Assembly: GCA_964428335.1 (NCBI GenBank)
Contig: CAYRXW010000003.1
Coordinates: 54,246-118,245 of the forward strand
Reading direction: 5' to 3'
Source of the DNA: an uncultured Methanosarcinales archaeon
Lineage (GTDB): Archaea > Nanobdellota > Nanobdellia > Woesearchaeales > GW2011-AR15
DNA: 64,000 bases
Below, piece after piece: positions 1 to 23,376 of this stretch; within the stretch, counting starts at the first letter, position 1, and each line of letters begins with the position of its first letter. Below the pieces are notes generated by a model. It had not been told where the DNA came from. It saw only the letters and a list, made by a program, of their open reading frames with translations, and searched no databases. A program made the translations under genes and the position numbers.

Positions 1-618
1 TTTCCTAAGGCAAGCTTGTCTTTTTTCATGCCAAGCTTTATCTGAGCAACAGCATATGTAATCTTTCTTGTCACAAAATTTAGCCCCCTTCTTGGACTCT
101 CATGGTTGTAAAGAATGCCGTTTACTGCATACATGCCGTATGCTTTCCTATAAAGCTTCACCATGTTATATGCATAATGCTTTGCTATTGCATAAGGTGA
201 AGTAGGATTCATCGGAGAATTCTCATTTTGAGGTGTTTCTACCGGATTTCCGTAAAGCTCGCTTGTCGATGCCTGGTAAAATTTTATCTTCTGGTTATAC
301 TTCCTTATGCTTTCTAAAATCCTTGCGACACCTAAACCCGTCACATTGCCTGTAAGGACAGCTGATTCAAATGACAGCCCTACATGCGATATTGCACCAA
401 GATTATAGACTTCATCTGGATTTGATTCAATTAAGGCATTTAATACATCAGTATCTGAAAGAAGGTCACCATAGATAAGATGTACCTTATTTCTTATATG
501 CCTGATATTCTCATCAGATTCAATAGGTCTTGAAAAACCAAAGACTGTATAACTCTTACTTAATAGAAACTCTGCAAGATAGCTCCCATCCTGTCCGCAA
601 ATGCCTGTAATTAACGCT
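1..618 (-). CDS. gmd: GDP-mannose 4,6-dehydratase, N-terminal part (gene continues beyond window start)
   Basis: Reverse-complement translation from ATG at 616-618 gives MRALITGICGQDGSYLAEFLL...YQASTSELYG...NHESPRRG, a close match to the Gmd/SDR Rossmann signature. Confidence 0.8.
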
Positions 619-619
619 C

Positions 620-940
620 TCATCTTTTCCCACCTTTATATTTTAAGCCAGCAATGAATATGATGGCCGGAATTAATATGAATACGAATTTTGTAAGCTT
701 GATTTTCAGCACAGAATCAAGAAGCAGGGTAAATGTGCTGTAACTTAAACCAACAAAATTAGCAAGCACGAACTTTTCTATAAATCCTACCTTCATCCTA
801 GCAATAAATATCAAAAATGGCATAAATATGAAAACAAGATATACCAAAGAAAGAAGAATACTCAACAGTCCAATATATGGGAATGTAATCAAAACAATGC
901 TTACAAAAGTCATTATCCCAAGCTTAATTTCATCTTTCAT
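620..940 (-). CDS. small integral membrane protein (hypothetical)
   Basis: 106-aa ORF with three hydrophobic helices; 4-nt overlap with the upstream gene. Confidence 0.35.
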   Translation of the reverse strand: MKDEIKLGIMTFVSIVLITFPYIGLLSILLSLVYLVFIFMPFLIFIARMKVGFIEKFVLANFVGLSYSTFTLLLDSVLKIKLTKFVFILIPAIIFIAGLKYKGGKR

Positions 941-2769
941 TTTCTTAGTACCCTATAACCGTTTTTATTGTATACCAGATTAAATCCTGCCTGTGAAAAC
1001 CTGTAAATGAAAAAATCATTCATCTCTTTTGTTCCAGGTCGCTCATCCATGAAAAAAATATATTTGAAATCATAGATTGAAACATTGCTGCTTGGATCAG
1101 GAACCCTTTGGTATTTCCACCAGTTAAGCTCTATTATATTCGATCTTGGTGTTGAGCCTCCCCAGCCGGATATCTCAAATTCCAAAGGAACATTAGTATC
1201 TGATATTGTCTCTAAATAATTCTGAAAATTCTCATGAGCAAATATCCCATTTACCCTTTTTACATAAAGCCCTTCACTCTGGTCATGAGAGCCAAAAAAC
1301 AACACCTTATCCTCTTTAGTTGAATCTTTCTGGATAAATTTGTAAGCTTCCCATTGGCTCAATGAAACATGCTCATACCTCATCATATCAACATTGCTCT
1401 TATATGAAGGATAGGCAGAGAACACTATAAAAAATAAAACTGCAAAAACAATAATGTAATCAAAAATATCCTTATTTTTTTCAAAAAAAGCAGATGCTTT
1501 TTTCTTATTCTCTGAACTGTTTATGGATACAGCGCTAACCAATACTGCAGATGCTTTCATTACAATATATATTCCATATGCTAAAAATGGGTAAAGCAGA
1601 TATGGCTGAAGCGCTCTCATCCTTCCGATATAATATGGCTTATAGAGGAAATATTCACAGTAGTAGAGGAAAATGAAAAAGTAGATTACAAAATAAAGCC
1701 AATTAAGGCTAAAAGAATCTGTTTTTTTACCGACCAGTTTTGTGTTCTTATCAGTTTCAATAGAAAATGCATACGGATAAAACCTGAATGCTATCAATGC
1801 TAAAATCCCTATGCATATAAAAATAATCTGCCATAATGGTATGTTTGAGAAATGCGGGAAAACCTGGTTTGCAACAGCATTAACAGGGTCAAACATGCTT
1901 GTTTCTGGTTTAAAAAATCCAGGAAGGTAGGAAGCTCCGTCAGGGTTTGAATATCCTCTCCAGACAAACAGGAATTTCGGTAAAAGTGCGAGCATTACAA
2001 TAAATGGGATAAGGCCGAAAAGCAGGCTTTTTTTAACAAGCTTTGAAAAATCATTATTTTTGAAATAGTCAAAAAGAAGGCTAAATCCAATAAACAAAGA
2101 CGGCAAAAACAGAATATAAATATCTGCAGTATGCGTCATAATTAGGGAAACAATAGAAATTCCCATGAACATAAGTGTCCAAGGCTCCTTTGTCCTGAAA
2201 TATCTTAAGAACAGCCAAAAATACAAAAGCATGATCGAATAGCCGCATACCTGGATCCATATGCCAATATAAGTAGGATAAAGCCAAACAGAGACAGGCA
2301 AAGGAAGAATTGTCAGTCCAGCGGCAAGCAGGGATATTTTATCATTATCAAACATCTCTTTTGTAATAAGATAGACAAGCAGCACAAAAAAAGCCTGCGA
2401 AAGGCAGACCAATAGATAAAACGTTGCCCAGGCAGGAATGCCTGAAAACATGGTGAGGATTGCAGCATTGGTGTAATAGAGCGGTGGCTGCACTGTAGAC
2501 ATGTTAGAAATCCCGGCAGAAAGATAGAAATCATCATAGTTCCATTGCTTTGTATCTATTACTTTCTCTACAGCCAAAACATGCGCAAAAGTATCAGATG
2601 CCTTCAAATTTCCAGGATGGGTCAAGGGTAATTTGTCAAAATTGATGTATAATATTGATGCTATTATAAAAAAAGCAATCACAAGATATTCTGGTTTAAG
2701 GAATTTTTCCAAGTCTTTCTTCTTTATAGTAAACTTTAAATCCTCCCCCATCCATATGACAAATGCCAA
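937..2769 (-). CDS. GT-C fold membrane glycosyltransferase (PMT/ArnT-like), multi-TM with soluble C-terminal domain
   Basis: 610 aa with many TM helices in the N-terminal two-thirds, then a large hydrophilic C-terminal domain; sits in a glycosylation cluster. Confidence 0.45.
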   Translation of the reverse strand: MAFVIWMGEDLKFTIKKKDLEKFLKPEYLVIAFFIIASILYINFDKLPLTHPGNLKASDTFAHVLAVEKVIDTKQWNYDDFYLSAGISNMSTVQPPLYYTNAAILTMFSGIPAWATFYLLVCLSQAFFVLLVYLITKEMFDNDKISLLAAGLTILPLPVSVWLYPTYIGIWIQVCGYSIMLLYFWLFLRYFRTKEPWTLMFMGISIVSLIMTHTADIYILFLPSLFIGFSLLFDYFKNNDFSKLVKKSLLFGLIPFIVMLALLPKFLFVWRGYSNPDGASYLPGFFKPETSMFDPVNAVANQVFPHFSNIPLWQIIFICIGILALIAFRFYPYAFSIETDKNTKLVGKKTDSFSLNWLYFVIYFFIFLYYCEYFLYKPYYIGRMRALQPYLLYPFLAYGIYIVMKASAVLVSAVSINSSENKKKASAFFEKNKDIFDYIIVFAVLFFIVFSAYPSYKSNVDMMRYEHVSLSQWEAYKFIQKDSTKEDKVLFFGSHDQSEGLYVKRVNGIFAHENFQNYLETISDTNVPLEFEISGWGGSTPRSNIIELNWWKYQRVPDPSSNVSIYDFKYIFFMDERPGTKEMNDFFIYRFSQAGFNLVYNKNGYRVLRK

Positions 2770-2812
2770 GAGATTTAAAAATCTAGCGTATTAGAACTGA
2801 AAATATAAGGTA

Positions 2813-3511
2813 CTATTTTGCATTTCTTGCAACAACATTCACATGTGTCCCGAAGTCAAAAATGCTGCAGATGAAGCTGCTTAAAAACCTTGGGACCAGA
2901 AGCATTGAGTGGGTCTCGTATTTTAGGACTTTAAACCCATGGATTTTTGTGAATTCCCTTAATGCTTTTCCTGTAAATACTGATTTATGTCCATACAATG
3001 GATTACTTCCTTTCTTTTTCATCAGCGTTCCTAGAATATGAGTTGAAGGGTGAAGGCAGTTTGGCATGAAACCAAGGAATAAAAGCGTCCTTGAATGAAG
3101 CGAGGCAAGATTTGTTGTTGATAAGATCAGTATGCCTTCAGGCTTTAGTACCCTTCTTAATTCTTCCATAAACCTGTCTGTAAAATAAAGATGCTCAATA
3201 ATCTGGTTTGCAATGATATAATCAAATGAATTATCCCTGTACGGGAAGTTATTGTTCAGGTCAAATGAATTAACTTTGTAACCAAGTTTTTTTAACCTTT
3301 TAACATGCACGTCTTCCAGTTCAACGCATGAAATATCTTTTGCATTTATGGATCTGGCTATCCTTGAAATCAGGATTCCGTCACCTGATCCTACATCAAG
3401 CACACCAGGATTTTTTTTTGTGAAATATCTTTTTGCAAGATAAGAGATACGGTCATGGTTCTCAATAGTCTCATCACACAGCGCTTTCCTTACTGAATTT
3501 GGGACAATCAT
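2813..3511 (-). CDS. class I SAM-dependent methyltransferase
   Basis: Motif I VLDVGSGDGIL and post-II motif LKPEGILILST. Confidence 0.7.
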   Translation of the reverse strand: MIVPNSVRKALCDETIENHDRISYLAKRYFTKKNPGVLDVGSGDGILISRIARSINAKDISCVELEDVHVKRLKKLGYKVNSFDLNNNFPYRDNSFDYIIANQIIEHLYFTDRFMEELRRVLKPEGILILSTTNLASLHSRTLLFLGFMPNCLHPSTHILGTLMKKKGSNPLYGHKSVFTGKALREFTKIHGFKVLKYETHSMLLVPRFLSSFICSIFDFGTHVNVVARNAK

Positions 3512-3576
3512 TGGTTTCCTGTAATTACTGGATGTTTAATAGGTTTATGGAAAAACCATTATCATAACTTATATTA

Positions 3577-4683
3577 ATGAAACAAATATCACCTAAATAT
3601 ATGAAAATAGGGATATATGCAAGAGGCCTTTCTGAGAAATCCGGCGGAACAAAAAGGATGATATATGAATATACCAAAAGAATAATCAGTCTAATTCCTG
3701 ATGAGGATGAGCTTTATATCTTCCATAACTGCGAAAATAATGTATTTAATTCAAGGAAGCATAATGTGCATGAAATCATAATAAAGGCAAAAAACAAGCT
3801 GTTATGTGACTATATCCTTGGCCCAAGGGAAATAAGGAAAAGAAAGCTTGAAAGTGTCTGGGTTTCAAAAACATTAATACCTTTGTTTTATGGCTGCAAA
3901 ACAGTAGTTTCAATAACTGATCTGGCAAGCTTTTATGACAAGTTCAATTCGCATCCTTACATATTGCGGAAATACATGAATTTTATAAAATTTTTTTCAG
4001 CAAAATATGCAACAAAAGTTCATGCAATATCAGACGCAACAAAAGATGACATAATAAGATTTACAAGAGTAAAAAAAGAGAAAGTAAAGACAATCTACCT
4101 TGCAGCAGATGAACATTTCCAGAGAGTAACAGATAAGATAAGATTGGAAAATGCAAGAAAAAAATATGCTCTTCCAAAAAAATTCCTGCTTTTTTTTGGC
4201 ATGGTCTCACCAAGGAAGAACATAAAAAACCTCATCTTGGCATTCCAGAAACTAAACTCGAATTACCATTTGATACTTGCGGGCGGGAAGGGCTGGAATG
4301 ACAGTGAAGAATTCAGGATGATAAAGGATTCAAAGACAATAAGGCATATAGGAAAAGTAGATGAGGAAGACATGTCTGCAGTATATTCATTAGCAACAGC
4401 TTTTGTCTTTCCTTCTTTTTATGAAGGTTTTGGACTTCCAATAATTGAGGCACAAAGCTGCGGATGCCCTGTCATCTGCTCAAAAACAAGCTCATTATAT
4501 GAGATAGGAAAAAATTCTGCTGTGTTTTTTGATCCTTATGATGTAAATGACATGGCAAAAAAAATAGATGAAGTTATGTGCAGCCAGAAACTAAGGATCA
4601 GGCTGAAAAAAGCAGGCCTTGTGAATGCAGGAAAGTATGATTGGGATAAATATTCAAAAGAGCTTTTGAATCTGATAAAATGA
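3577..4683 (+). CDS. GT4-family glycosyltransferase
   Basis: C-terminal EGFGLPIIEAQSCGCPVICS (GT4 E-x7-E region), about 370 aa. Confidence 0.75.
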   Translation: MKQISPKYMKIGIYARGLSEKSGGTKRMIYEYTKRIISLIPDEDELYIFHNCENNVFNSRKHNVHEIIIKAKNKLLCDYILGPREIRKRKLESVWVSKTLIPLFYGCKTVVSITDLASFYDKFNSHPYILRKYMNFIKFFSAKYATKVHAISDATKDDIIRFTRVKKEKVKTIYLAADEHFQRVTDKIRLENARKKYALPKKFLLFFGMVSPRKNIKNLILAFQKLNSNYHLILAGGKGWNDSEEFRMIKDSKTIRHIGKVDEEDMSAVYSLATAFVFPSFYEGFGLPIIEAQSCGCPVICSKTSSLYEIGKNSAVFFDPYDVNDMAKKIDEVMCSQKLRIRLKKAGLVNAGKYDWDKYSKELLNLIK

Positions 4684-5612
4684 AGAAAATCTACCTGAAC
4701 ATATTAAGAATCCTTGGAACCTTGCTGTTTATTGCGTTAGTCCTGTCAAAAGCTGACATAAAAAGCATCATGCCAAGCCTGAAAAACATACAGGTCATCG
4801 GCCTTATATTCTCTTTTGTTATTTTCTTTGCAATCCAGATATTAAGCACATTAAGATGGCACATATTGCTTTCTATAAATGAGCTGAAAATAAGATTCCA
4901 GTATTTATTCCATGCAAATGCAGTATCAATGCTTTCAGGCCTTTTTTTCCCTACAAATTTTGGAACAGACCTAGTCAGGCTTATCTATGCAGCAAAAGAA
5001 AAAGGAGTCAGCAAAAGAAAAGCGGTAGTAGGAACAGTTGGAGACAGGTTATTTGGGATGACTACTATGAGCATCATGTTTTTTTTTGGATTATTGCTAT
5101 CTGATTACTTAACAAAAAACCAGAAGATGCTGCTTTCTTTTCTTCTTTTATTTTTATTCACATTTGCAGTTTTTGCATTAGTCATGAGAAAGATAATCCT
5201 AAGATACATGATGAAAAAATCAGCAAAGCTGCCTTTTGGGAAACTCATTAAAAAAGTACTTGCTGATCTTGAATCATTCAGCGGGAAGGATATAATGCTG
5301 CTGCTTTTCATATCTATACTAATTAACCTGGCAAGCATCTATTACAATTACCAGCTTTTTAAAATCCTTGGAGTGAATGTAACATTCCTTATGATATTCA
5401 TAGCATACCCAATAAAAAGGTTCATTAACCTTTTGCCGATAAGCATAGGAGGGCTTGGGGCAAATGAAGTGACAATGTGGGCGCTTTTAAGCCCATTTGG
5501 AATTACAATTGAGCAGGTGATTGCTTATTCAGGGCTAAGCTATCTTGTCCTAATCTTAAGCAGCCTGATTTACCTAATCCCAGGATTATTCTCAAAACAT
5601 GAAAGCAAATGA
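4680..5612 (+). CDS. flippase-like / UPF0104 (LPG-synthase TM-type) membrane protein
   Basis: 310 aa, about 8 TM helices; overlaps the upstream GT4 stop (ATGA); my family assignment is by resemblance only. Confidence 0.4.
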   Translation: MKKIYLNILRILGTLLFIALVLSKADIKSIMPSLKNIQVIGLIFSFVIFFAIQILSTLRWHILLSINELKIRFQYLFHANAVSMLSGLFFPTNFGTDLVRLIYAAKEKGVSKRKAVVGTVGDRLFGMTTMSIMFFFGLLLSDYLTKNQKMLLSFLLLFLFTFAVFALVMRKIILRYMMKKSAKLPFGKLIKKVLADLESFSGKDIMLLLFISILINLASIYYNYQLFKILGVNVTFLMIFIAYPIKRFINLLPISIGGLGANEVTMWALLSPFGITIEQVIAYSGLSYLVLILSSLIYLIPGLFSKHESK

Positions 5613-5920
5613 TAGGGACATATACAGCTAAAACAGAAGATTTCCTAATAGACATAAATTCAGATTTTGCAAAAAAGAGTTTTACAGGATATGAATTAGA
5701 TTACTGCTATAAACGAACAAGGCCACAGATACATCTTGCAGGGATATACTGTGCAAAAAGAGCACTGCTGGAATTAAACGCTGTGAACTTAAATGAGGTT
5801 GAGATAAAGCATGAAAAAAGCGGAAAACCAATAGCTTTTATAAGGAAAAAAAAGTTTTCAGGTGATATAAGCATCTCGCATACTGAAAAACTGGCGATAG
5901 CAATAGCAGTAGACCAATGA
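5609..5920 (+). CDS. 4'-phosphopantetheinyl transferase, AcpS-like
   Basis: FTGYELDYC...HLAGIYCAKRALLE...EVEIKHEKSGKPIAF...ISISH...AIAIAV resembles the AcpS core; the N-terminal GIDIVEI motif is degenerate. Confidence 0.5.
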   Translation: MIGTYTAKTEDFLIDINSDFAKKSFTGYELDYCYKRTRPQIHLAGIYCAKRALLELNAVNLNEVEIKHEKSGKPIAFIRKKKFSGDISISHTEKLAIAIAVDQ

Positions 5921-7596
5921 AAGACAAAAAGAAGATAAAAATAGCAGTACTTAGCTCTTATACAGCAAATAACATAAAAGAGCCTCTGGCAAAGTACCTT
6001 GATGAATTTGGTTTTTTCCCAGAAATAAGATTTGGAGGGTACAACCAGTTTAATGAGGAGTTTCACGATGACTCTTCCTGGCTGAATGAGTTTAACCCAG
6101 ACATAATATTTGCATTATTCAGCACAAGGACTTTTTTCCCAGCAATTTTTGACAAATTGAATGATTATGATAATTTAATTAGCGAGGCAAAGGAAAAAAT
6201 AGATTTGTTTTTTGAAGCAGCAGGCCAGTATCTTGGACATGGAAAGATTATTGTGACATCTTTTGATTATCCTTTATCAACACCTTTAGGGATAATGGAC
6301 ATAAATTCAAGAAAAAGCGTCCATAGCTTTGTTACTTTTGCAAATGAGATGCTGCTTGACTATTCCACTGAAAATCAGAGGGTTTCAGTACTTGATTTTG
6401 ACAGAATCTGTTCAATTGTCGGAAAAAATAAAATTACTGATAATAAGATGTTCTATCTTGGAAAGATAGTTCTTTCAAAGGAAACTGCAGATAAACTTGC
6501 TGAAGAGATGTCAGTATTTGTGAATGCAGCTTTTGGGAAAATAAAAAAAATAATAGTCACAGACCTTGATAACACCTTATGGGGAGGGGTTATCGGTGAG
6601 GATGGTGTTGAGGGAGTAAAAATAGGGGACACAAATATAGGCAAAATCTATTCTGATATCCAAAAAATCCTTCTGAACTATAAGAAACTGGGAATTGTGC
6701 TTGCGATTTCCTCAAAAAATAATGAAGAAGATGTCATGCCAGTTTTCCAAAAAAAAGAGATGATACTAAAAAGCCAGGATTTTGTCTCTATGAAAATCAA
6801 CTGGAAGCCAAAATCTGAAAATATTATCGAGATTGCAGAAGAGCTGAATCTTGGGCTTGACAGCTTCCTGTTCCTGGATGATAATCCTTCTGAACGGCTT
6901 GAAGTCAAGACAAACATACCAGAGATTGAAATCATAGACTTTCCAAACGATGTCTCAAACCTGCCTGACATACTTATGGGAATAAAATCACTAAAAAAAT
7001 TAGAACTTACGGCAGAGGACAAAAAAAGACATGAAATGTATTCAAAAGACCGGGAAAGAAGCGAGCTTAGGAAAAAAATACCTATTGAGGAATACCTAAA
7101 AAAGCTTGACATATCAATTGAAGTGAAAATAAATGATGCCAATTCAATAGACAGGATAACGCAGCTCATAAATAAGACAAACCAGTTCAACGTAAGGACG
7201 CAGAGGTATTCAAAAGAACAAGTTATAAGTATGATGAATTCGAAGGAATATTTAATCAGCAGCGTAAGTGTCTGGGATAAATTCGGGGAGCTTGGACTTA
7301 CTGGGATAATAATACTAAAAAGAGAAAATGAAATTTACTTCATTGATACCTTCCTTATGAGCTGCAGGGTGCTTTCCAGGGGGATTGAAAAGCAGTTTTT
7401 CTATGAGACTATAAAAAAGATTGAAAATGGAAAATTAAAAGCTGAGTTCATAAAGTCTCCAAAAAATTCTGTATGCATGGATTTTTATGAATCAATTGGC
7501 TTTACAAAAACTGAAGAAAAGGAAAATATAAAAAAATATGAGCTTGATTTAAAGAATTACCAGTTCAAGGATCTGGATTACATAAGGGTGAAATGA
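5917..7596 (+). CDS. FkbH-like HAD-IIIC domain protein with C-terminal acyltransferase-like domain (ACP loader)
   Basis: IIVTDLDNTLWGGVIGEDGVEGVKIGD is the FkbH/HAD-IIIC signature; 559 aa; immediately followed by an ACP gene. Confidence 0.7.
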   Translation: MKDKKKIKIAVLSSYTANNIKEPLAKYLDEFGFFPEIRFGGYNQFNEEFHDDSSWLNEFNPDIIFALFSTRTFFPAIFDKLNDYDNLISEAKEKIDLFFEAAGQYLGHGKIIVTSFDYPLSTPLGIMDINSRKSVHSFVTFANEMLLDYSTENQRVSVLDFDRICSIVGKNKITDNKMFYLGKIVLSKETADKLAEEMSVFVNAAFGKIKKIIVTDLDNTLWGGVIGEDGVEGVKIGDTNIGKIYSDIQKILLNYKKLGIVLAISSKNNEEDVMPVFQKKEMILKSQDFVSMKINWKPKSENIIEIAEELNLGLDSFLFLDDNPSERLEVKTNIPEIEIIDFPNDVSNLPDILMGIKSLKKLELTAEDKKRHEMYSKDRERSELRKKIPIEEYLKKLDISIEVKINDANSIDRITQLINKTNQFNVRTQRYSKEQVISMMNSKEYLISSVSVWDKFGELGLTGIIILKRENEIYFIDTFLMSCRVLSRGIEKQFFYETIKKIENGKLKAEFIKSPKNSVCMDFYESIGFTKTEEKENIKKYELDLKNYQFKDLDYIRVK

Positions 7597-7599
7597 AAA

Positions 7600-7848
7600 T
7601 TGGACAAACCTGCAAAAAATGACATAATAAGGACAATCAATGAAGTTATGGGGCTGGATATCAAGAAGATAGATGAAAACAGGAAGCTTAGTGAGATAAG
7701 CGAATGGGATTCTTTCAACAACCTGATGCTCATATCACGGTTCCAAGATGAGTTACATATAGAATTCACAGCTGTTGAGATAGAGGATGCACAGACAGTC
7801 AAGGACATTTTCTCTCTTTTGGAGAAGAAGCTAAAGGTAAAGTTTTAA
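7600..7848 (+). CDS. acyl carrier protein
   Basis: 82 aa, acidic, LSEISEWDSFNNLMLISRFQDE with the phosphopantetheine Ser in the DSF(L) motif. Confidence 0.7.
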   Translation: MDKPAKNDIIRTINEVMGLDIKKIDENRKLSEISEWDSFNNLMLISRFQDELHIEFTAVEIEDAQTVKDIFSLLEKKLKVKF

Positions 7849-7870
7849 ATACAAAAATTTTCTTTTTCCT

Positions 7871-9259
7871 ATGCAGCTGACATCATTACTTTTTTTTGGA
7901 TTCCTTTTAGTTTCATTATTTTCTTTTTATCTTGCCCCAAAAAAGTTCAGGAACTATATCCTGCTTATATCCAGTATCCTATTTTACCTCAGTTTTGGGA
8001 TAAAGCATCTTGCAATAGTAATGCTGATTACATTAATAGGATATGCTTTTTCATTCCTTGCCTATAAAAAAAAGCAATATTCCTATCTTGGGATATCTCT
8101 TCTTGTTCTCTCTTTATTTTATTTCAAATATTATCTTTTTTTCACAGAACTAGTAATGGATTTTGCAAGGCTCCCTGTTTTTGAGATATTGCTGCCTTTA
8201 GGGATATCCTTTTACACATTCCAGATAATCGGCAACCTGCTTGACATATCAAGAGGCAAGGCAAAGCCTGAAAAAAATATCCTCATCTATTCACTAAGCA
8301 TCTTATTTTTCCCGAAAGCTGTTTCAGGACCTATTGAAAGAACAGGCTTTGCCAGCCAGTTCCAGCATAATAACAATTTAGAGCAGGAAAATATAAGATC
8401 AGGACTTACCCTGATGCTTATAGGATATTTCAAGAAAATAGTGATTGCTGACAGACTGGCAGTAGTAGTCAACCAGGTGTTTGGAAACCTGCCATTATAT
8501 ACAGGGATTCCATTGATACTTGCAGGCATCTTCTACCTTTTCCAGCTATACTGTGATTTTTCAGGATATACTGATATTGCAAGGGGGATTTCAAAATTAT
8601 TTGGAAAGGAACTAACGATAAATTTCAAAAGGCCATTCCTTTCAAAAAATGTGAGTGAGTTTTGGAGAAGATGGCACATTTCTCTCTCTACTTGGTTCCA
8701 GGATTACATGTTCAATCCACTTTACTTATGGCTATCAAAAAAAATAAAGATAAATCAGAGCATAAACCACATAATCAATTTCACGATTGCAATACTTATT
8801 GTTGAAACACTTCTTGGGATATGGCATGGCGCAAACCTGACCTTTGCGTTTTTTGGACTGTACTTTGGCATTTTGATTTCACTATATTATATTTCCAGGA
8901 AATATTATGACAGGCTTACGTCGGCTATTCAGATAGGGATTAACTTTTTAGCTTTAGTAATAGGGATGATTATCTTCAGGAGTGGAAGCCTAGCAGAAGC
9001 ATCATACATATTTTCAAACATTACAGATATAACTTTACTGATTCAGGGAATACACCTGAATGTTTCATGGGCAGGCCTAATTATAAACATTTTATTGATA
9101 GCTGGCCTGTTAACCTACGAAATCCTTGTTGAGTTTTTTGGATTTGATTTTTCAAAGCTTAGTGAGCCGGCAAGATTAATATGCTATTCAATACTTTTGG
9201 TAATGATAGCTGTTTTTGGTGCATTCAACCAGGTGAATTTCCTTTACTCGCAATTTTAA
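7871..9259 (+). CDS. MBOAT-family membrane-bound O-acyltransferase (DltB/AlgI-like)
   Basis: 462 aa multi-TM; FWRRWHISLSTWFQDYMFNPL contains the conserved MBOAT His. Confidence 0.8.
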   Translation: MQLTSLLFFGFLLVSLFSFYLAPKKFRNYILLISSILFYLSFGIKHLAIVMLITLIGYAFSFLAYKKKQYSYLGISLLVLSLFYFKYYLFFTELVMDFARLPVFEILLPLGISFYTFQIIGNLLDISRGKAKPEKNILIYSLSILFFPKAVSGPIERTGFASQFQHNNNLEQENIRSGLTLMLIGYFKKIVIADRLAVVVNQVFGNLPLYTGIPLILAGIFYLFQLYCDFSGYTDIARGISKLFGKELTINFKRPFLSKNVSEFWRRWHISLSTWFQDYMFNPLYLWLSKKIKINQSINHIINFTIAILIVETLLGIWHGANLTFAFFGLYFGILISLYYISRKYYDRLTSAIQIGINFLALVIGMIIFRSGSLAEASYIFSNITDITLLIQGIHLNVSWAGLIINILLIAGLLTYEILVEFFGFDFSKLSEPARLICYSILLVMIAVFGAFNQVNFLYSQF

Positions 9260-9260
9260 A

Positions 9261-10211
9261 ATGAAAAAAATAAAAAAAATGATATGGCAGGGAATCTTTA
9301 TCATTGGACTATTTACTGTCCTTTTTCTTGTCCTTAATTTCCTTTATACAGAAACCGTGATAAAAAAGACAGTAACATACAGGAAAAACCAGGAATTCAA
9401 TAGTTTCATAAAAAATGAGACAGTGATAAAATATGCTTTTTTTGGAGGAAGCCATGTTGAAAATAGCATCAATCCAAGATATATCAATGGCGCATATAAT
9501 TTTGCAGGTGGAGCAAAAACTTATTTTGAAGTGTATCTTGACCTAAAAAACCTTATTGAAAAAAACATATCAGTAGAATATGCCTTTTTAGAGCTTGACA
9601 TGCATACTTTTTCATCATACCTTTTTAATTTTGAGCGTCCAGTTCTTGTAAACATATGGCATTACAGCAGGATAACAGATATAGATGAGATACATGAAGC
9701 AACAAAAATCCCTTATATGAAGCTTTTCATAGATTCAAGGTTTCCAGTCTTTGGGAACGGGGAGAATTTTTTCCTGATCAAAAAAGAAAGCGAGATATAC
9801 AATGGCTATGCAAAAAGATACGGAAATTTTTCATATGAAAATGCAGAAGATCTTACAAAAAGAAGGATAGGAAGGCAGTTTAGAAACCAGGAAATGATAT
9901 CAAACCTTACCATGGGCTATTTCATAAAAACATTAAGGCTAGCAAAGGAAAACAACATAACAGTGGTCCTTGTAAAATACCCTGTAACAAAGATATATGA
10001 TGAGACTTTAAGCTCAGTGGTCTCAAAGAAGGACTATTATGAAACTATCCTTTCAAAAGCAGGGAATGAGACAGATGATCTATACATCCTGGACTATTAT
10101 GATATTTATTTTGATAATCTGGAGTACTTTGATGATGCTGACCATATGAACCATATAGGTTCTGAAGCTTTTTCAAAAAAAGTAAGCAAGGATATAGCTA
10201 AATTTAAATAA
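9261..10211 (+). CDS. DltD/AlgX-like SGNH-fold protein, N-terminal membrane anchor
   Basis: N-terminal TM, FFGGSHVENS near the N-terminus and DADHMNH (DxxH) near the C-terminus; operon position after MBOAT. Confidence 0.5.
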   Translation: MKKIKKMIWQGIFIIGLFTVLFLVLNFLYTETVIKKTVTYRKNQEFNSFIKNETVIKYAFFGGSHVENSINPRYINGAYNFAGGAKTYFEVYLDLKNLIEKNISVEYAFLELDMHTFSSYLFNFERPVLVNIWHYSRITDIDEIHEATKIPYMKLFIDSRFPVFGNGENFFLIKKESEIYNGYAKRYGNFSYENAEDLTKRRIGRQFRNQEMISNLTMGYFIKTLRLAKENNITVVLVKYPVTKIYDETLSSVVSKKDYYETILSKAGNETDDLYILDYYDIYFDNLEYFDDADHMNHIGSEAFSKKVSKDIAKFK

Positions 10212-10234
10212 GAGCAGGATAATTTAGATATGGG

Positions 10235-12007
10235 ATGGGGGGAACCAGAAAAAAACCAGCAAAGGAAAATAAAGAGGACTTGGCTGAGGTTTCTTTTGAT
10301 TTCAAGAACATAAAAAAACTTCTTCCGTTTCTAATCTTAGGGATAATCTTAGTGATTGGCGTATACCAAAGGTTTTATCATATAAATTATCCTATGGTCG
10401 GGTACCATAACTGGAAATCTGCGCATTATTTAACTGAAGCAAGGAATTTTGCAAATGAAGGTTTTTTCAAGCATGGCTTTTTTGTCCCGATGAGGGATAC
10501 TATGGAAAGGAGCAATGAGCCCAGCGATGGCGCGCATGGGGATACTTTTCCGACAACAGGGATAATCATAGGGTTCTTGTTTAGAATCTTTGGCGAGAGC
10601 TTAGTTTTGGCAAGGATAGTAAATATTGTTTTTTCAGTCGGTTATATAATAGCAACATACCTTTTAATAAGAAAATTGTTTGAGCGTGAGGACCTGGCTT
10701 TGCTTACAGCATTCCTTACAGCAGTAAACCCGCTTTATGTATTCTTTAGCCATAATATCCAGATGGACACGCAGGGATTATTTTTTATGGTCTTAGGCCT
10801 TTACTATTATGTCTGCTGGATTAAGAACCAGGAAAAATTCTCAAGCCTTTATCTTGCAAGCTTTTTTATCATGTTTGCCTCAGTCACAAAATACAGCTTT
10901 GCTGTTGCAATAATACCTATAATGATAACATTTCCTTATGCAAAGTTTTTGAAAGACTTAAAAAAATACATAAAACCTCTGGCAATAACAGGGTTTATAT
11001 CAATGATGTTCCCGGCATGGCTTTATTATTCCCAGTATGTAATCAAGAAAACAATCTATGAAGTTAACATCATTGAAACGCAGAGGACAACTTCAGGAAT
11101 TAAGGGACTGCTAAGTTCCATTGACCTAAGCATTGTGTTTGATTCTAATTTCTGGAATGTAATGAAAAGCTATGTTGCTGATAATTATTCACTTATAGGA
11201 ATGAACTTCGCATTCATTGGAATGCTTGTCTTCATGTTCTTGTTTTTAACAAAAAATAGGAAAGAGTTCAGCTATAGATTCACTTTTGGCACAATAATTG
11301 GGATGGTTGCATTCCTGTTCATCATGGGACAGAAATTAAACGGGCACAATTACCACCAGTTCCCTGTTGCACCTTTCATAATCTTTTTTATCTCGTACTT
11401 ATTTGTCGTAATAGGAAGGAACATCGCGTCTTTTTTCAAGGATGATTATGTTAAGTCTATTGTGATTGCATTAGTTATTTTAATAATGCTTTTTGTCTTC
11501 CCAGGCCCAGAAAAAAGCGTATATGCACAATCCATGCAGGGTAAAGACAGGATGTTCAATACACAATTTCCAGGCCTTGATGTTGCAGGGTATTATATCA
11601 GAGACCATTCGCTTCCAAATGAAAGGATACTACATAGCTCCCACCAGAGCTTTGGAGTGCTTTGGCATGCAGGAAGGAAAGGCTACAAGCCACCAAACAC
11701 ACTTGAAGAACTGAAAGAGAATGAAGCTAATTTTAATGCAACGTACCTGTTTGCATACCAATGGGGGATAAATTCATATTTTGGAAATAAGGAAATACTT
11801 GACTATGTTAAGCAGAATTACAGACTGGTGCAGTTTGCATATGTCCAGAACGGGCAGCAGGCATCACCATTGTATTTTGTTTTCAGGAAGGGCGGGACTT
11901 TTGATGATTCAAAACTTAACGAGATACTTGCAAATAAGCCTGTAAAGAAAACAACATACCATTATACAAATGGACCATATGATATATATTCAATAGACCT
12001 TGAATGA
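10235..12007 (+). CDS. GT-C fold membrane glycosyltransferase (PMT_2/ArnT-like)
   Basis: 590 aa, multiple TM helices, acidic first extracellular loop (RDTMERSNEPSDGAHGD), soluble C-terminal domain. Confidence 0.5.
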   Translation: MGGTRKKPAKENKEDLAEVSFDFKNIKKLLPFLILGIILVIGVYQRFYHINYPMVGYHNWKSAHYLTEARNFANEGFFKHGFFVPMRDTMERSNEPSDGAHGDTFPTTGIIIGFLFRIFGESLVLARIVNIVFSVGYIIATYLLIRKLFEREDLALLTAFLTAVNPLYVFFSHNIQMDTQGLFFMVLGLYYYVCWIKNQEKFSSLYLASFFIMFASVTKYSFAVAIIPIMITFPYAKFLKDLKKYIKPLAITGFISMMFPAWLYYSQYVIKKTIYEVNIIETQRTTSGIKGLLSSIDLSIVFDSNFWNVMKSYVADNYSLIGMNFAFIGMLVFMFLFLTKNRKEFSYRFTFGTIIGMVAFLFIMGQKLNGHNYHQFPVAPFIIFFISYLFVVIGRNIASFFKDDYVKSIVIALVILIMLFVFPGPEKSVYAQSMQGKDRMFNTQFPGLDVAGYYIRDHSLPNERILHSSHQSFGVLWHAGRKGYKPPNTLEELKENEANFNATYLFAYQWGINSYFGNKEILDYVKQNYRLVQFAYVQNGQQASPLYFVFRKGGTFDDSKLNEILANKPVKKTTYHYTNGPYDIYSIDLE

Positions 12008-12074
12008 TTTTTTTATCATACTTCATCATACTTTTTCATAATCTTTAAATAAGCACAGCTTTTACTCTTGGTTC

Positions 12075-12908
12075 ATGAAGGAACGGCTTACAATAACGCT
12101 TAATTCAGGCACGCTTGAAGAGATTGACAAGCTGATTGATGGCAATAAAATAAAGAACAGGAGCCATGCTATTGAGGTAACCTTAGGAAGGATACTCAAT
12201 AACAGGCCAAGAAAAGCACTTTTACTGCTAGGTGGGAAAGGCACAAGGTTTAGGCCGATAACATATGAGATGCCAAAGGCGCTCTTGCCGGTCCAGGGAA
12301 GGACAGTACCTGAACATATGATTGACCTGCTGAAAAAATATGGGATAACAGACCTTGTTTTTTCCATAGGTTATCTAGGTGATAAGATAAGGGATTATTT
12401 CAGCGATGGAAGCAGGTTTGGGGTTAATATAACATATGTCAAGGAAAACGAGCCAATGGGAAGCGCAGGAGCAATAAAGCTAGCTTCAGGCTTACTTAAA
12501 GACCCATTCGTTGTTACAAATGGAGATGAATTAAAGAACATAAACCTTGATGAGATGTTTGAATTCCACAGGAAAAACAAGGCCTTAATCACAGTTGCCT
12601 TAACAACAGTAGAGAACCCTTCTTTTTATGGAGTTGCAAAGCTTGAAGGAAACAGAGTTCTGGAATTCATAGAAAAGCCACCAAAGGAAAAAGCGCCCAG
12701 CAATTTAGTCAATTCAGGCCTTTCAATATGGGAGCCGGAAGTATTAAAATACATCCCTAAAGGATTCTCAATGTATGAAAAGGACCTATTTCCGATACTT
12801 GCAAGGCAGGGGAAGCTATATGGATATGTATTTTCAGGGCAGTGGTTTGATACAGGAACTCCAGAAAGATATGAGATTGCGATAAAGAACTGGAGAGGGA
12901 TAAACTAA
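12075..12908 (+). CDS. sugar-1-phosphate nucleotidyltransferase with N-terminal ribbon-helix-helix domain
   Basis: LLLGGKGTRFRPITYEMPKALLPV is the NTP-transferase G-rich loop; the N-terminal 45 aa (LTITLNSGTLEEIDKLI...NRSHAIEVTLGRIL) has an RHH beta-alpha-alpha pattern with no intervening start codon. Confidence 0.7.
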   Translation: MKERLTITLNSGTLEEIDKLIDGNKIKNRSHAIEVTLGRILNNRPRKALLLLGGKGTRFRPITYEMPKALLPVQGRTVPEHMIDLLKKYGITDLVFSIGYLGDKIRDYFSDGSRFGVNITYVKENEPMGSAGAIKLASGLLKDPFVVTNGDELKNINLDEMFEFHRKNKALITVALTTVENPSFYGVAKLEGNRVLEFIEKPPKEKAPSNLVNSGLSIWEPEVLKYIPKGFSMYEKDLFPILARQGKLYGYVFSGQWFDTGTPERYEIAIKNWRGIN

Positions 12909-12959
12909 TTCAAACATTTTGATTTCTAGAAGTATAGAAATTACTTCACTTCAAAGAAT

Positions 12960-13013
12960 TGATTTAAACCCTCGAAGGGCCCCCCGAAAGAGACCCTCCT
13001 AGGGAAAAAGAGG
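12960..13013. ncRNA. GC-rich structured intergenic element flanked by direct repeats TGATTTAAAC (candidate small RNA or terminator)
   Basis: ccctcgaagggccccccgaaagagaccctcctagggaaaaagagg is strongly GC-rich in an AT-rich gap and forms hairpins CCCT-cga-AGGG and CCTC...GAGG. Confidence 0.25.
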
Positions 13014-13112
13014 TGAACATGATTTAAACACATGTTGAATTGCTCAACATTTGTTATCATTTTGGAATAGAAACATTATATTTAAAGCTTTCGGATATGA
13101 CTTAATTTTAAA

Positions 13113-13631
13113 GTGGTGACATATTCTTTTTTAAATAGTAAAGTTCTTCGCTTCAGTATGGATATGCACCAGGCAAAAAAAAGGATCCAGAAGGAATTAA
13201 GGCTGAACAAGCTCTTGAAGAAAGGAGATGATGTTACAGTTATAGACGATGATTCAACAGAGGCAAAAATATCCTTGTATTTTCTTAAGAATTCAAACAT
13301 CCCTCTTAACATCAGTGTAAAGAAACTAAAATATAATATAGAAAACAAGATAAAGGCAAAAAAAGCCATAATACCCTGGAATGCTGATATGGAAGGGGAG
13401 CAATTCCTGAAATCAATCTTTGAAGGGAAAAAGCCGGAATTCTTAGGACATTTTACATTAGATAGTACCAAATACATCAAGCTTCTGATATCCTTCAATT
13501 CAAAAGAGATTGAAGAATTAGCAAAATGCCTGAAACTTGAATATAAAAAGAGGGATTCTATCCTTGAAGCTTTGGATGAATACCCTGAGATCAGGCATAG
13601 CCTGCTTCAGAGTTCAAAGCAGTTTAGGTAA
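13113..13631 (+). CDS. hypothetical protein
   Basis: 172-aa ORF, no recognisable motifs. Confidence 0.3.
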   Translation: MVTYSFLNSKVLRFSMDMHQAKKRIQKELRLNKLLKKGDDVTVIDDDSTEAKISLYFLKNSNIPLNISVKKLKYNIENKIKAKKAIIPWNADMEGEQFLKSIFEGKKPEFLGHFTLDSTKYIKLLISFNSKEIEELAKCLKLEYKKRDSILEALDEYPEIRHSLLQSSKQFR

Positions 13632-14861
13632 TCAGCCCAGTTTTTTAGATATTATTTCAGCTGCAAGGACATTTCCCCTGGTGTTCCAGTGCCCGTCATA
13701 TTCCCAGTGCAGCCTTTCTGTGCTGTTCCTGAAATATGGAAGAAGGTCAAGGTAATCAATATCAATATCTTCTGAAAAATTCATCAATATCCTATTAGGC
13801 TTATCCGTTTCATAGCTATAATCTTTCAGTTCAGGGTAAGTATCTTTTAACCTGTCCCAGTCTTCATCATATACCTGCTCAACAGAAGTAGCAGATACAA
13901 GCAAAAATTTTGCATCATTGCTTTCGCTCAGATTTTTAATCTCTTCAATATACCTTAATTCATCATCCCATCTGCCTTTCCAGGTATCGTCATAATCTTC
14001 TACATAGATTTCATAATTTGTAATATGCTGGTTCCTGTACTTTTTTTCCATCCCCTTGTTTAATACCCTATCTCCAAGCATGCTTGCCTTCTGTATGAAA
14101 AAATCCACAGTTCTTATCTTTAAAATCTTATCCAGGAAAAATCTGCTTTTGCCTGATCCATATTTTTCATATCTAATATTATCTATAATGTCATTTTGCG
14201 CCTGGAAAAGAAGGATGACTTTTTTAGGGTGATAAATGGATGAATAATGCTTCAGAATAGCAAGCTGATCCCTTGTTCCATATCCTCCGACACCGAAATT
14301 ATACACTTCTATTCTTTCATCCTTTTCCTTTAGGCTTTCTTCCAGCTTTACATGCATACAATCTGAATAATTCACATGAAAGCATTCAGCAAATGAATCA
14401 CCTAAAAGGAAAACAACCTCTGAATCGTTTGATGAAAATGCATCATCCAAAAATCCTTCGCTGTTTGATTCCCTGTAAAACCTTGGCCCATCCTTTAATT
14501 CAAAGCAGTGCGTCATTTCTGGAATGAACTTGAACTGCACATCACCAAAAAAATGCTCTTTCTTTGCGGTGCAGCCAAGCAGATTCAAAGAGAGTTCAAA
14601 TATGAATATGCATAATAAAAAAGATAAAATCATAATGGAAATCTCTTTCCTTTTCCTGTATATGAGCCTTGGCCTGATGATAAGGAAAAGGCCTATTAAT
14701 ATTATTATCATATCAACAAAAACTATTGCAAAAAACATCCCAACCCCAGTTATCCTGCTATCAACACTTAAAACCTTACCAACAGTGATAGGATTTAATA
14801 TGAATGCAGAAATTACAACAAGAAAACCAAGAAACCTTATTGCTTTAGGAAAATTCATCAA
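13632..14861 (-). CDS. membrane-anchored SGNH/GDSL-like hydrolase or acyltransferase (AlgX/DltD-like)
   Basis: N-terminal TM; VVFLLGDSFAECF (GDS block I) and C-terminal YDGHWN (DxxH block V). Confidence 0.5.
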   Translation of the reverse strand: MMNFPKAIRFLGFLVVISAFILNPITVGKVLSVDSRITGVGMFFAIVFVDMIIILIGLFLIIRPRLIYRKRKEISIMILSFLLCIFIFELSLNLLGCTAKKEHFFGDVQFKFIPEMTHCFELKDGPRFYRESNSEGFLDDAFSSNDSEVVFLLGDSFAECFHVNYSDCMHVKLEESLKEKDERIEVYNFGVGGYGTRDQLAILKHYSSIYHPKKVILLFQAQNDIIDNIRYEKYGSGKSRFFLDKILKIRTVDFFIQKASMLGDRVLNKGMEKKYRNQHITNYEIYVEDYDDTWKGRWDDELRYIEEIKNLSESNDAKFLLVSATSVEQVYDEDWDRLKDTYPELKDYSYETDKPNRILMNFSEDIDIDYLDLLPYFRNSTERLHWEYDGHWNTRGNVLAAEIISKKLG

Positions 14862-14910
14862 TCTAAGATTACCAAAAAGCTTATTTAATAACCTTACTAA
14901 TTAAATCAAA

Positions 14911-15696
14911 ATGAAAAAAGCAATCTTCCTGTTCCTTATTTTTTTAACTGCATGCACTATCACAACAAACGTTATATATGAACCAAAATCAGACATTGAA
15001 GTACATTTCTGCCCCAGGGATATGTGCATGGAGAACCTGATTGAATTGATTGATAAAAGCACAGAGATAAAATGCGCATTCTATGAATTGAACCTGCCTG
15101 AACTGATAGAAGCGTTAAATAAAAAAAATGCAGATGTTGTCATAGAAGACAGCGAATTTGAGGATGAGATGCATGAAGGTTACCATACAGGATATTCATT
15201 TGCCCTCATGCACAACAAGTTCTGTGTTTTTGACAGGAATACAGTATGGAGCGGAAGCTTTAATCCAACTGAGAGAGGAAACTATTATAATAATGAGAAT
15301 GCAATAATGATAAAATCCAGTGCGCTAGCGGAAAATTACCTGGAAGAATTCTATGAGCTGAAAGAGGATGTTTATGGGGAAGGAAGCAAGGTAAAAACTC
15401 CTGTTGTTTATAACGGGGAAATAAAGATAGAGAATTATTTCTGCCCTGAAGACAACTGCAAGCTTCATGTCCTTGAAACACTGAGAAAAAGAAACAGCTC
15501 AATCTATTTCATGACATTCAGTTTTACAGATGAGGACATCGCAAACTTACTTTGGAATTCATACCATGAAGGAATAGAGGTTAAAGGCGTATTGGAAGAA
15601 AGACAGCTTAGCGAACATTCGCAGTATGATACACTAAAAAAATTCTCAATAATTGATACAAATCCTTTCACGATGCACCAAAATATTGCTTTATGA
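14911..15696 (+). pseudogene. two-HKD (PLD-family) secreted nuclease, 5' fragment interrupted by the mobile element
   Basis: Lipoprotein-like N-terminus (FLTACTITT); first HKD motif MHNKFCVFDRNTVWSGSFNPT; ORF ends ...NPFTMH-QNIAL* exactly where the second HKD motif should begin. Confidence 0.7.
15674..15680. repeat. 7-bp direct repeat TGCACCA, left copy (att core/overlap or target-site duplication)
   Basis: Identical heptamer at 36079-36085; both abut the terminal inverted repeats. Confidence 0.7.
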
Positions 15697-15703
15697 ATAC
15701 TTT
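15681..15703. repeat. left terminal inverted repeat AAATATTGC-TTT-ATGAATACTTT
   Basis: Reverse complement of 36056-36078 (AAAGTATTCAT-ATC-GCAATATTT); 20 of 23 positions match and both 9-nt and 11-nt arms are perfect. Confidence 0.7.
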
Positions 15704-15765
15704 ATTCTAGTTAGATGCGAATTTTGGCTAAAATCCTATAAATAAACTAAGTAGAGGTATTCATC

Positions 15766-23229: not shown

Positions 23230-23376
23230 ATGGGGCGAAAGACGGTAGCTTTAAGCGTAAATGCTGAAATCTATGATATGTACAAGGCATTCTGTGAAGA
23301 GAATTCCATAATACTTTCTCGTAAGTTTGATGCTTTTATGAAAAAGGAATTACAGAAGGCAGGTAAACATGAATAA
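23230..23376 (+). CDS. small ribbon-helix-helix protein overlapping the hsdR start (candidate controller of the RM operon)
   Basis: 48 aa [48 protein letters not shown]; RHH-like beta strand plus two helices; stop overlaps hsdR ATG by 8 nt; below the 60-aa track cutoff. Confidence 0.45.

Follow-up and report, generated by a model that had tools for sequence, protein, structure and literature searches.

A swappable archaeal gene cassette predicted to feed an MBOAT–SGNH surface-acylation pair from an FkbH-type loader and an acyl carrier protein

We analyzed a 64,000-nucleotide stretch of archaeal DNA (contig CAYRXW010000003.1 of assembly GCA_964428335.1, positions 54,246 to 118,245; hereafter the window), in which five consecutive plus-strand genes encode an AcpS-like protein, an FkbH-type loader, an acyl carrier protein (ACP), an MBOAT (membrane-bound O-acyltransferase) and an SGNH protein. 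With moderate confidence, we read these genes as a system for the extracytoplasmic O-acylation of a surface glycan, in which an MBOAT with its own tyrosine shuttle and a partner SGNH protein would be fed with a glyceryl-type unit by the loader and the ACP, all within a cassette that can be swapped. So far, MBOAT–SGNH acylation of cell envelopes comes in two forms: the Dlt form, with a carrier protein and a separate tyrosine-shuttle microprotein, and the others, with acyl-CoA and a fused shuttle. The cassette would pair a carrier-protein donor with a fused shuttle and has FkbH in place of the adenylating loader, which leads us to expect surface-glycan esters of the glyceryl or lactyl type.

The five open reading frames (ORFs; 5609-5920, 5917-7596, 7600-7848, 7871-9259 and 9261-10211, all on the plus strand) lie where the original prediction had placed them and contain all the motifs that it quoted. 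The loader ORF overlaps the AcpS-like ORF by 4 bp, the ACP ORF starts 3 bp after the loader, the MBOAT ORF 22 bp after the ACP, and the SGNH gene begins 1 bp past the MBOAT stop codon; ATGA start/stop overlaps tie the AcpS-like ORF to both its neighbors. A scan of window genes with Pfam and NCBIfam models identified the loader, ACP and MBOAT directly, and the identities originally proposed for the AcpS-like and SGNH proteins were confirmed with alignments and structure models. The described setting among family 4 (GT4) and GT-C-type glycosyltransferases was also borne out.

The loader (5917..7596; 559 amino acids) scored above the curated cutoffs for both FkbH (TIGR01686, 310.9 vs 146.65 bits) and the haloacid dehalogenase (HAD)-IIIC family (TIGR01681, 82.9 vs 35.75 bits). 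It comprises an N-terminal FkbH_N-like domain, a HAD-IIIC phosphatase domain (DLDNT, residues 216-220; LDNTLWGGVIGEDGVEG spans residues 217-233) and a C-terminal domain with a conserved cysteine, Cys483, the putative acyl-enzyme site as in OzmB and FkbH. Residues 36-354 match PDB entry 3slr (Bacteroides fragilis BF1531, E = 1.5e-40), and all 57 columns that are invariant in an 18-sequence alignment of loaders are kept, including Asp216, Asp218 and Cys483. The stand-alone ACP (7600..7848; 82 amino acids) exceeds the PF00550 cutoff (25.1 vs 20.8 bits) and has its attachment residue, Ser38, in a DSF motif (residues 37-39, nt 7708-7716); the corresponding D-S-(L/M/F/I/V) motif is kept in 66 of 70 FkbH-linked ACPs. 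A profile check with TIGR01686 and PF00550 thus bears out the original assignment of both proteins. For FkbH members of polyketide pathways, the conversion of 1,3-bisphosphoglycerate to glyceryl-S-ACP is established (PMC7489565).

No hexapeptide, GNAT, ketosynthase or other soluble acyltransferase able to unload the ACP is present in the window cassette. Four related loci (L001, L002, L083 and L084) carry genes for a MaoC dehydratase, a short-chain dehydrogenase/reductase (SDR) and a methyltransferase between or beside the module genes. The window has no equivalents of the relatives' MaoC, SDR, cassette methyltransferase and hexapeptide-transferase genes, and because MaoC, SDR and cassette methyltransferase are absent we predict that the loader's unit is untailored and of glyceryl type. 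The DH-KR-FkbH logic of bryostatin biosynthesis yields lactyl units, and the MaoC/SDR sets of the relatives resemble it; those relatives with tailoring genes would make lactyl- or O-methyl-type variants. Two of them, both close relatives, join the same supply genes to different transferases. In L083 (8563-13517; GCA_964351975.1), a MaoC-SDR-AcpS-FkbH-ACP unit is accompanied by a methyltransferase and a hexapeptide acyltransferase, near a DegT aminotransferase and with no MBOAT, and in L084 (8547-14464) the same unit is coupled instead to an MBOAT and a DUF1574 protein. The transferases imply cytoplasmic N-acylation in L083 and extracytoplasmic O-acylation in L084, and the supply unit looks like a plug-in module.

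The MBOAT (7871..9259; 462 amino acids) matches PF03062 with 55.3 bits (cutoff 27); its best NCBIfam model is DltB (TIGR04091, 163 bits, below the equivalog cutoff of 375). DltB is also its nearest solved relative (6bug/8jem, E = 5e-27), with both histidine motifs aligned: conserved His269 in WRRWHISLS (WRRWHISLSTWF spans residues 265-276) and His319 in WHGAN. The extreme C-terminus of the protein, residues 457-462 (nt 9239-9256), reads FLYSQF and fits the pattern FxYxxF, with Tyr459 as its tyrosine. In DltX and PatA this motif carries the acyl-Tyr intermediate; Dlt systems have it on the microprotein DltX, and acetyl-CoA systems have it fused to the MBOAT C-terminus after two extra helices (PMC12148441). 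Those acetyl-CoA-dependent MBOAT–SGNH systems "lack a similar carrier protein" (PMC12148441). Since FLYSQF is fused to the MBOAT while a loader and an ACP are encoded upstream, the system appears to be a hybrid of a Dlt-type carrier-protein donor and a PatA-type fused shuttle. The original prediction had invoked the logic of the Dlt and alginate systems, with a thioester donor, an MBOAT and an outer SGNH protein; that logic stands, but the fused FxYxxF motif had been overlooked and a simple likeness to Dlt does not.

Twelve further FkbH-linked MBOATs (470-590 amino acids) end in an FxYxxF-type motif in a census of their C-termini. A second class of FkbH-linked MBOATs (in loci L024, L045, L056, L059, L065, L066 and L079) has no C-terminal FxYxxF; its members are mostly about 390-415 amino acids long, with L045 an outlier at 529, and they may use a separate DltX-like microprotein or another kind of acceptor.

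The fifth protein (9261..10211; 316 amino acids) gave no significant match to an SGNH profile, with DUF1574 weak at E = 0.0018; a PDB sequence search with it returned nothing and an initial homologue search returned four matches. Profile searching and structure prediction were then applied. An alignment of the family, which includes syntenic orthologues, has invariant G62-x-S64 and D292-x-x-H295, giving Ser64 (in GGSH) and Asp292/His295 (in DADH) as predicted catalytic residues. DUF1574 is detected in 6 of the 11 family members (best E = 1.7e-11) and DltD, weakly, in two of them; GDSL_2 is weak as well, and a profile search with the family also retrieves AlgX- and GDSL_2-domain proteins. The AlphaFold2 (AF2) model (predicted local distance difference test score, pLDDT, 84.9; predicted template-modeling score, pTM, 0.84) has an N-terminal helix at residues 2-32 with a transmembrane anchor at about 8-30, and DltD takes up all ten of its top Foldseek places in the PDB, ahead of SGNH esterases and, lower still, PatB. 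The model and the alignment support a membrane-anchored, DltD-like SGNH protein, presumably an acyltransferase. A hidden Markov model (HMM) of DltD-like proteins found no partner adjoining the bacterial class-A MBOATs of L063, L070, L073, L075 and L078; if these have partners at all, the proteins must be of a different type or have diverged too far.

The first of the five genes (5609..5920; 103 amino acids) encodes a protein with the AcpS fold and a degenerate active site. It has no PF01648 match at E < 0.01, scores 20.7 bits against a cutoff of 59.8 with TIGR00516, and reaches E values of 4e-5 to 4e-3 with NCBIfam acpS models, all sub-threshold. It shares 33-38% identity with syntenic, PF01648-positive orthologues that head the operon in other archaea, and its AF2 model (pLDDT 97.4) finds AcpS structures as best Foldseek matches (1f7l and 1f80, also 1fte; TM-score ∼0.8). 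On these alignments and this model, we regard its homology to AcpS as secure. AcpS holds the pyrophosphate of CoA with Asp8 and Glu57/58 via an essential metal, and a conserved lysine protonates the leaving group (PMC3447402). Aligned with the Bacillus subtilis enzyme, the window protein has Tyr5, Arg51 and Glu55 in place of Asp8, Glu58 and Lys62. An exhaustive search for relatives gave 619 matches, and among the 141 short relatives scored these three residues are kept in 133, 134 and 139, respectively (94-99%); all three are present in 14 of 14 syntenic orthologues. The protein thus shares fold, length class and several conserved motifs with group I 4'-phosphopantetheinyl transferases (PPTases), of which active-looking orthologues head the operon in related archaea, but it fails the catalytic definition of the family. 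With all three residues replaced, it is very probably not an active PPTase. No second PPTase is encoded within the 64-kb window, and the ACP system, which had been described as complete, is probably not self-sufficient.

Several AcpS features are retained, namely K50, the G72-K-P74 loop and the S-I-S-H91 motif. The sole close relative of the degenerate protein, P0149 (46% identity), is degenerate as well, with no GxD and with Glu58 replaced by Lys, and both copies have acidic residues close to the N-terminus. An intact ORF that persists in two long-diverged alleles argues for selection on the gene for some function, and a degenerate PPTase kept beside an MBOAT is a concrete, testable puzzle. 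Two other degenerate AcpS-like proteins were uninformative: P0202 lies in a bacterial housekeeping context, where its neighbors are a carbohydrate kinase gene and the gene for ribosomal protein L27, and P0244 sits on a 623-bp contig.

The second of these alleles, the one with P0149, is that of L086 and L087, two sister loci that share synteny with positions 620-15696 of the window. To the left of the module, protein identity to the sister is 94% for a DUF6541 protein, 94% for a methyltransferase and 87% for a GT4 glycosyltransferase, and to the right it is 98% for an NTP-transferase and 84-96% for a PLD-like protein. In the core, identity falls to 48% for a flippase-like protein, 46% for the AcpS-like protein, 52% for the MBOAT, 54% for the SGNH protein and 64% for the GT-C protein. 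Nucleotide alignment gives the same picture, with 89% identity over 1-4565, essentially no alignment over 4566-9200 and 74% over 9201-13632. The divergent cassette begins with the flippase-like gene (4680..5612, plus strand; transmembrane domain of the MprF/LPG-synthase type, PF03706 117 bits, TIGR00374 81 bits vs a cutoff of 43.2) and ends with the gene for the membrane glycosyltransferase of GT-C type (PMT_2/PMT; 10235..12007, plus strand; PF13231 51 bits, PF02366 40 bits). A 30-bp gap is all that separates the AcpS-like gene of the sister allele from its MBOAT gene, with the SGNH gene next and neither FkbH nor ACP present.

Judged from these alignments, the window at about 4.57-12.0 kb has the pattern of a serotype-like variable cassette of the O-antigen or capsule type, swapped between conserved flanks, and allelic cassette replacement between close relatives is demonstrable. 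Because the sister allele runs MBOAT–SGNH without FkbH or ACP, the loader–carrier arm and the MBOAT–SGNH arm are separable. The pattern of flanks and core shows that ultra-small archaea vary their surface chemistry by swapping cassettes, as bacteria do at O-antigen and capsule loci; viruses or contact with host cells are plausible drivers.

FkbH-like homologues number more than 7,900 at E ≤ 1e-10, and we took a census of 82 sampled loci, 10 archaeal and 72 bacterial (loci L003-L082 are from reference genomes). The scan of the genome collection was a sample of at least 600 stretches that missed the closest DPANN relatives, and its taxon counts are those of a sample. An ACP gene lies within 6 kb of FkbH, mostly adjacent, in about 76 of the 82 loci, and an MBOAT gene within the same distance in 17 (3 archaeal, 14 bacterial) from unrelated phyla; the linkage of these genes is beyond chance. 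The order AcpS-FkbH-ACP-(tailoring)-MBOAT-DltD-like recurs in related DPANN archaea (L001, L002 and L084), as the synteny check suggested in the original prediction would have it, and the order FkbH-ACP-MBOAT-DltD-like in the bacteria Methylomonas (L051), Christensenellaceae (L060) and Lachnospiraceae (L062). An AcpS gene adjoins FkbH-ACP in 7 of the 10 archaeal loci vs 4 of the 72 bacterial ones (Fisher p = 9e-6), the four being one each from Staskawiczbacteria of the candidate phyla radiation (CPR), Acidobacteriota, Acidiferrobacteraceae and Dehalococcoidia. This bias seems to fit archaea without a housekeeping PPTase, with the cassette bringing its own where the host probably has none. The same core is present in many bacterial genomes and in genomes of the DPANN, Asgard-related and thaumarchaeal groups, and it is among the few archaeal contexts in which an ACP is encoded with its own PPTase. 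We found no description of the cassette in the literature on the gene neighborhoods of FkbH and of MBOAT/DltB/AlgI.

Starting from what was observed here (the identities of the genes, the folds and catalytic motifs of their products, the conserved synteny, the structure of the alleles and the degeneracy of the AcpS-like protein), we propose the following route. The HAD domain and Cys483 of the loader would take up a C3 hydroxyacyl unit, of which glyceryl from 1,3-bisphosphoglycerate is the likeliest, and pass it as a thioester to the phosphopantetheine on Ser38 of the ACP. The MBOAT (His269/His319) would accept the acyl group at the cytoplasmic face and transfer it to its own Tyr459 at the outer face, where Ser64 of the DltD-like protein, with Asp292/His295, would take it over and esterify a hydroxyl of the surface glycan. 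The flippase-like and GT-C proteins, which co-vary with the module, probably make or lengthen that acceptor on the outside of the cell. As the AcpS-like protein is very probably inactive, the ACP would have to be activated by another enzyme, or else the carrier branch is being lost as in the sister allele. We infer the identity of the acyl unit, the hand-off from ACP to MBOAT, the acceptor and the membrane topology.

This route is supported by the recurrent gene order, the linkage, the shuttle motif, the intact loader motifs and the lack of any other outlet for the ACP, and it has a precedent in the glyceroyl-type surface decoration of Campylobacter jejuni, whose locus holds an FkbH-domain gene. 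Several observations weigh against it. The PPTase next door looks dead, which leaves holo-ACP formation without an explanation in the 64 kb; the sister allele has its MBOAT and SGNH genes without loader or carrier, and 65 of the 82 FkbH-ACP loci have no MBOAT nearby. The fused motif is of the PatA type, and characterized systems of that type take acetyl-CoA and have no carrier protein. The TM-scores of the DltD-like structural matches are modest, ∼0.42. We found no characterized FkbH-like loader outside polyketide pathways in the literature, and "glyceryl" is therefore an extrapolation; the function of the cassette and its glycan acceptor are both predictions.

Some of the same observations would fit a carrier arm that is non-functional or decaying, with the ACP in its apo form, FkbH and ACP as relics, and the MBOAT–SGNH pair acting in the manner of PatA/PatB on acyl-CoA, probably acetyl-CoA, in plain O-acetylation. 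The loss of Asp8, Glu58 and Lys62 with no other PPTase in the window, the AcpS-like-MBOAT-SGNH arrangement of L086 and L087 with its 30-bp gap and no FkbH or ACP, and the PatA-type fused FxYxxF all point this way. Yet the loader retains all 57 of its family-invariant residues, Asp216, Asp218 and Cys483 among them, the ACP keeps its serine and scores over the Pfam cutoff, and both are intact ORFs joined by an ATGA overlap or a 3-bp spacing. Moreover, alleles that are 46-54% identical are anciently diverged alternatives, with no freshly decaying copy, and a PPTase could be encoded in another part of the 228-kb contig or of the genome; we consider decay unlikely. We also asked whether the two arms could be independent neighbors in one glycan locus, the ACP-bound unit going to a cytoplasmic acceptor, for example by N-acylation of an amino sugar, and the MBOAT–SGNH pair O-acetylating from acyl-CoA. 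Precedents are the L083 locus, in which the AcpS-FkbH-ACP unit precedes genes for a methyltransferase and a hexapeptide acyltransferase, with a DegT neighbor and no MBOAT, and the N-linked glyceroyl group on pseudaminic acid of C. jejuni; the 65 of 82 loci without a nearby MBOAT and the lone MBOAT–SGNH pair of the sister allele agree with it. However, the window cassette holds no hexapeptide, GNAT or other soluble enzyme to unload the ACP, the exact order FkbH-ACP-MBOAT-DltD-like is found in distant bacteria and archaea, and the MBOAT-linked bacterial loaders form a clade of their own in a neighbor-joining tree that has no support values, which suggests co-evolution. Independence of the two arms therefore strikes us as rather improbable.

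The remaining explanations concern the AcpS-like protein. It could still be an active PPTase that relies on non-canonical residues, such as Glu10/Asp11 just downstream of the lost GxD, in which case the module would be complete. Its fold is fully kept, K50, the G72-K-P74 loop and S-I-S-H91 are still there, the N-terminal acidic residues are found in both degenerate copies, and the ORF is intact and apparently translationally coupled in two alleles only 46% identical. Nevertheless, the residues for metal and pyrophosphate binding and for the leaving group are all replaced, two of them by the opposite charge (E to R and K to E), at positions conserved in 94-99% of 141 relatives, and the protein persists in a sister allele that has no adjoining ACP gene, all of which makes activity very unlikely. 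We also speculated that the protein, as a conserved pseudo-enzyme, has given up phosphopantetheine transfer for a new role, in which it binds without catalysis either the carrier or the 3',5'-ADP/phosphopantetheine part of acyl-CoA and presents the thioester to the MBOAT funnel, and that FkbH-ACP-fed MBOAT–SGNH acylation is a third, undescribed donor mode in bacteria and archaea. Such an adaptor would explain why an intact, apparently translationally coupled ORF lies upstream of the MBOAT also in the allele without ACP and loader; we give this idea only a small chance of being correct.

The FkbH-ACP-fed route that we favor can be set beside characterized systems. The Dlt system of Firmicutes (DltA, DltC, DltB, DltX and DltD; D-alanylation of teichoic acids) likewise has a small carrier charged by a loader, a DltB that is the best match of the window MBOAT, passage of the acyl group to the tyrosine of an FxYxxF motif and a membrane-anchored DltD-type SGNH protein that makes the ester on a surface polymer. 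In contrast to Dlt, the window loader is of the FkbH/HAD-IIIC type instead of an adenylating DltA, which points to a hydroxyacyl unit and not D-alanine, and no AMP-binding (DltA-type) enzyme was found among the scanned genes between 3577 and 12908. The window system also has no DltX microprotein, its shuttle motif being fused to the MBOAT; its MBOAT and ACP fall far under the DltB and DltC equivalog cutoffs, and its host is an archaeon without teichoic acids. The PatA/PatB, AlgI/AlgJ/AlgX, WssH/WssI and PatA1/PatB1 systems share the MBOAT with two extra C-terminal helices and FxYxxF and the separate SGNH protein, but they take acetyl-CoA without a carrier, whereas in the window genes for a loader and an ACP stand immediately before the MBOAT gene, which speaks against an acyl-CoA donor there; the sister allele, with neither, fits this class better.

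The glyceryl-ACP synthases of FkbH, OzmB and tetronate pathways resemble the window arm in an FkbH score above the cutoff, a DxDxT motif, a conserved cysteine and an adjacent stand-alone ACP. The window differs from them in having no polyketide synthase, FabH-like enzyme or FkbI/K/G oxidation and methylation enzymes, in a product predicted to decorate a glycan and not to enter a polyketide, and in an extra N-terminal domain of the loader that resembles BF1531 (PDB 3slr), a protein whose function is not known. An FkbH-domain gene, cj1302, is also found in the flagellar glycosylation locus of C. jejuni, whose glycan carries 2,3-di-O-methylglyceroyl-pseudaminic acid; the papers do not show that cj1302 makes the glyceroyl group, and the link is an inferred one. 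Here the likeness is an FkbH-domain gene in a hypervariable surface-glycan locus and a glyceroyl-type acyl group on the glycan; the difference is that a cytoplasmic nucleotide sugar bears the group in N-linkage and no MBOAT–SGNH step is involved, which is closer to L083 than to the window.

As to origin, the nearest named homologues of the loader (47-56% identity) are from DPANN archaea, and a rough neighbor-joining tree of loaders, made without support values, places it in a deep clade in which every member with a name is DPANN. The loaders of other archaea (from Asgard, Thaumarchaeota, Micrarchaeota and another Nanoarchaeota) branch elsewhere among bacteria. Archaeal FkbH-like genes being polyphyletic on this tree, transfer between the domains has occurred more than once. 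The module has a G+C content of 0.34-0.35, the same as its flanks; with this and the deep DPANN clade, the proposal that it was horizontally acquired does not hold in the sense of a recent bacterial import. A recent foreign island was ruled out on the same G+C match, the true low-GC island of the window being elsewhere, at 15.7-36.1 kb. The archaeal identity of the host was confirmed by a match to TIGR03665, the "universal archaeal KH domain protein" (213 vs a cutoff of 114 bits), and by genes for a deoxyhypusine synthase and an FlaI-like ATPase; these markers exclude a bacterial or CPR host. Together with the affiliations of the nearest module homologues, they indicate a host of DPANN type.

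A further gene of the locus (13632..14861, minus strand) had been described as a second SGNH paralogue. Its 409-amino acid product is not detected by the HMM of the 316-amino acid family and belongs to the GDSL family (PF00657, 24.8 bits vs a cutoff of 23.6; NF047474, E = 3e-8); within the SGNH superfamily it is only a distant relation and no close paralogue. It has hydrophobic N-terminal segments consistent with a membrane anchor and shows weak similarity to the GDSL genes that lie next to the second MBOAT of L084. It has no counterpart in L086 and L087, which have an unrelated 379-amino acid gene there on the other strand, so that the locus varies at this second site as well. It may be an accessory esterase or transferase, and its place in the system is uncertain.

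Beyond the locus, a 20.4-kb integrated element of low G+C content (0.25-0.31; 15684-36078) interrupts a PLD-like (PLDc_2-PLDc_2-LTD) gene, which the sister locus L087 has in unbroken form, and leaves it as two fragments (14911-15696 and 36078-36605). Its terminal inverted repeats are 27 nt long (15679-15705 and 36054-36080; 93% complementary), and a short duplicated TGCACCA is present at both junctions. Among its genes are one for a tyrosine integrase (15766-17073), the three of a complete type I restriction-modification system (hsdR 23369-25699, hsdM 25709-27139, hsdS 27136-28425) and one for an SMC_N-like ATPase (29937-31946). No tRNA genes or Rfam matches were found across the window. At 61629-62579 on the minus strand, a CDP-alcohol phosphatidyltransferase domain is fused to a C-terminal DUF192 domain.

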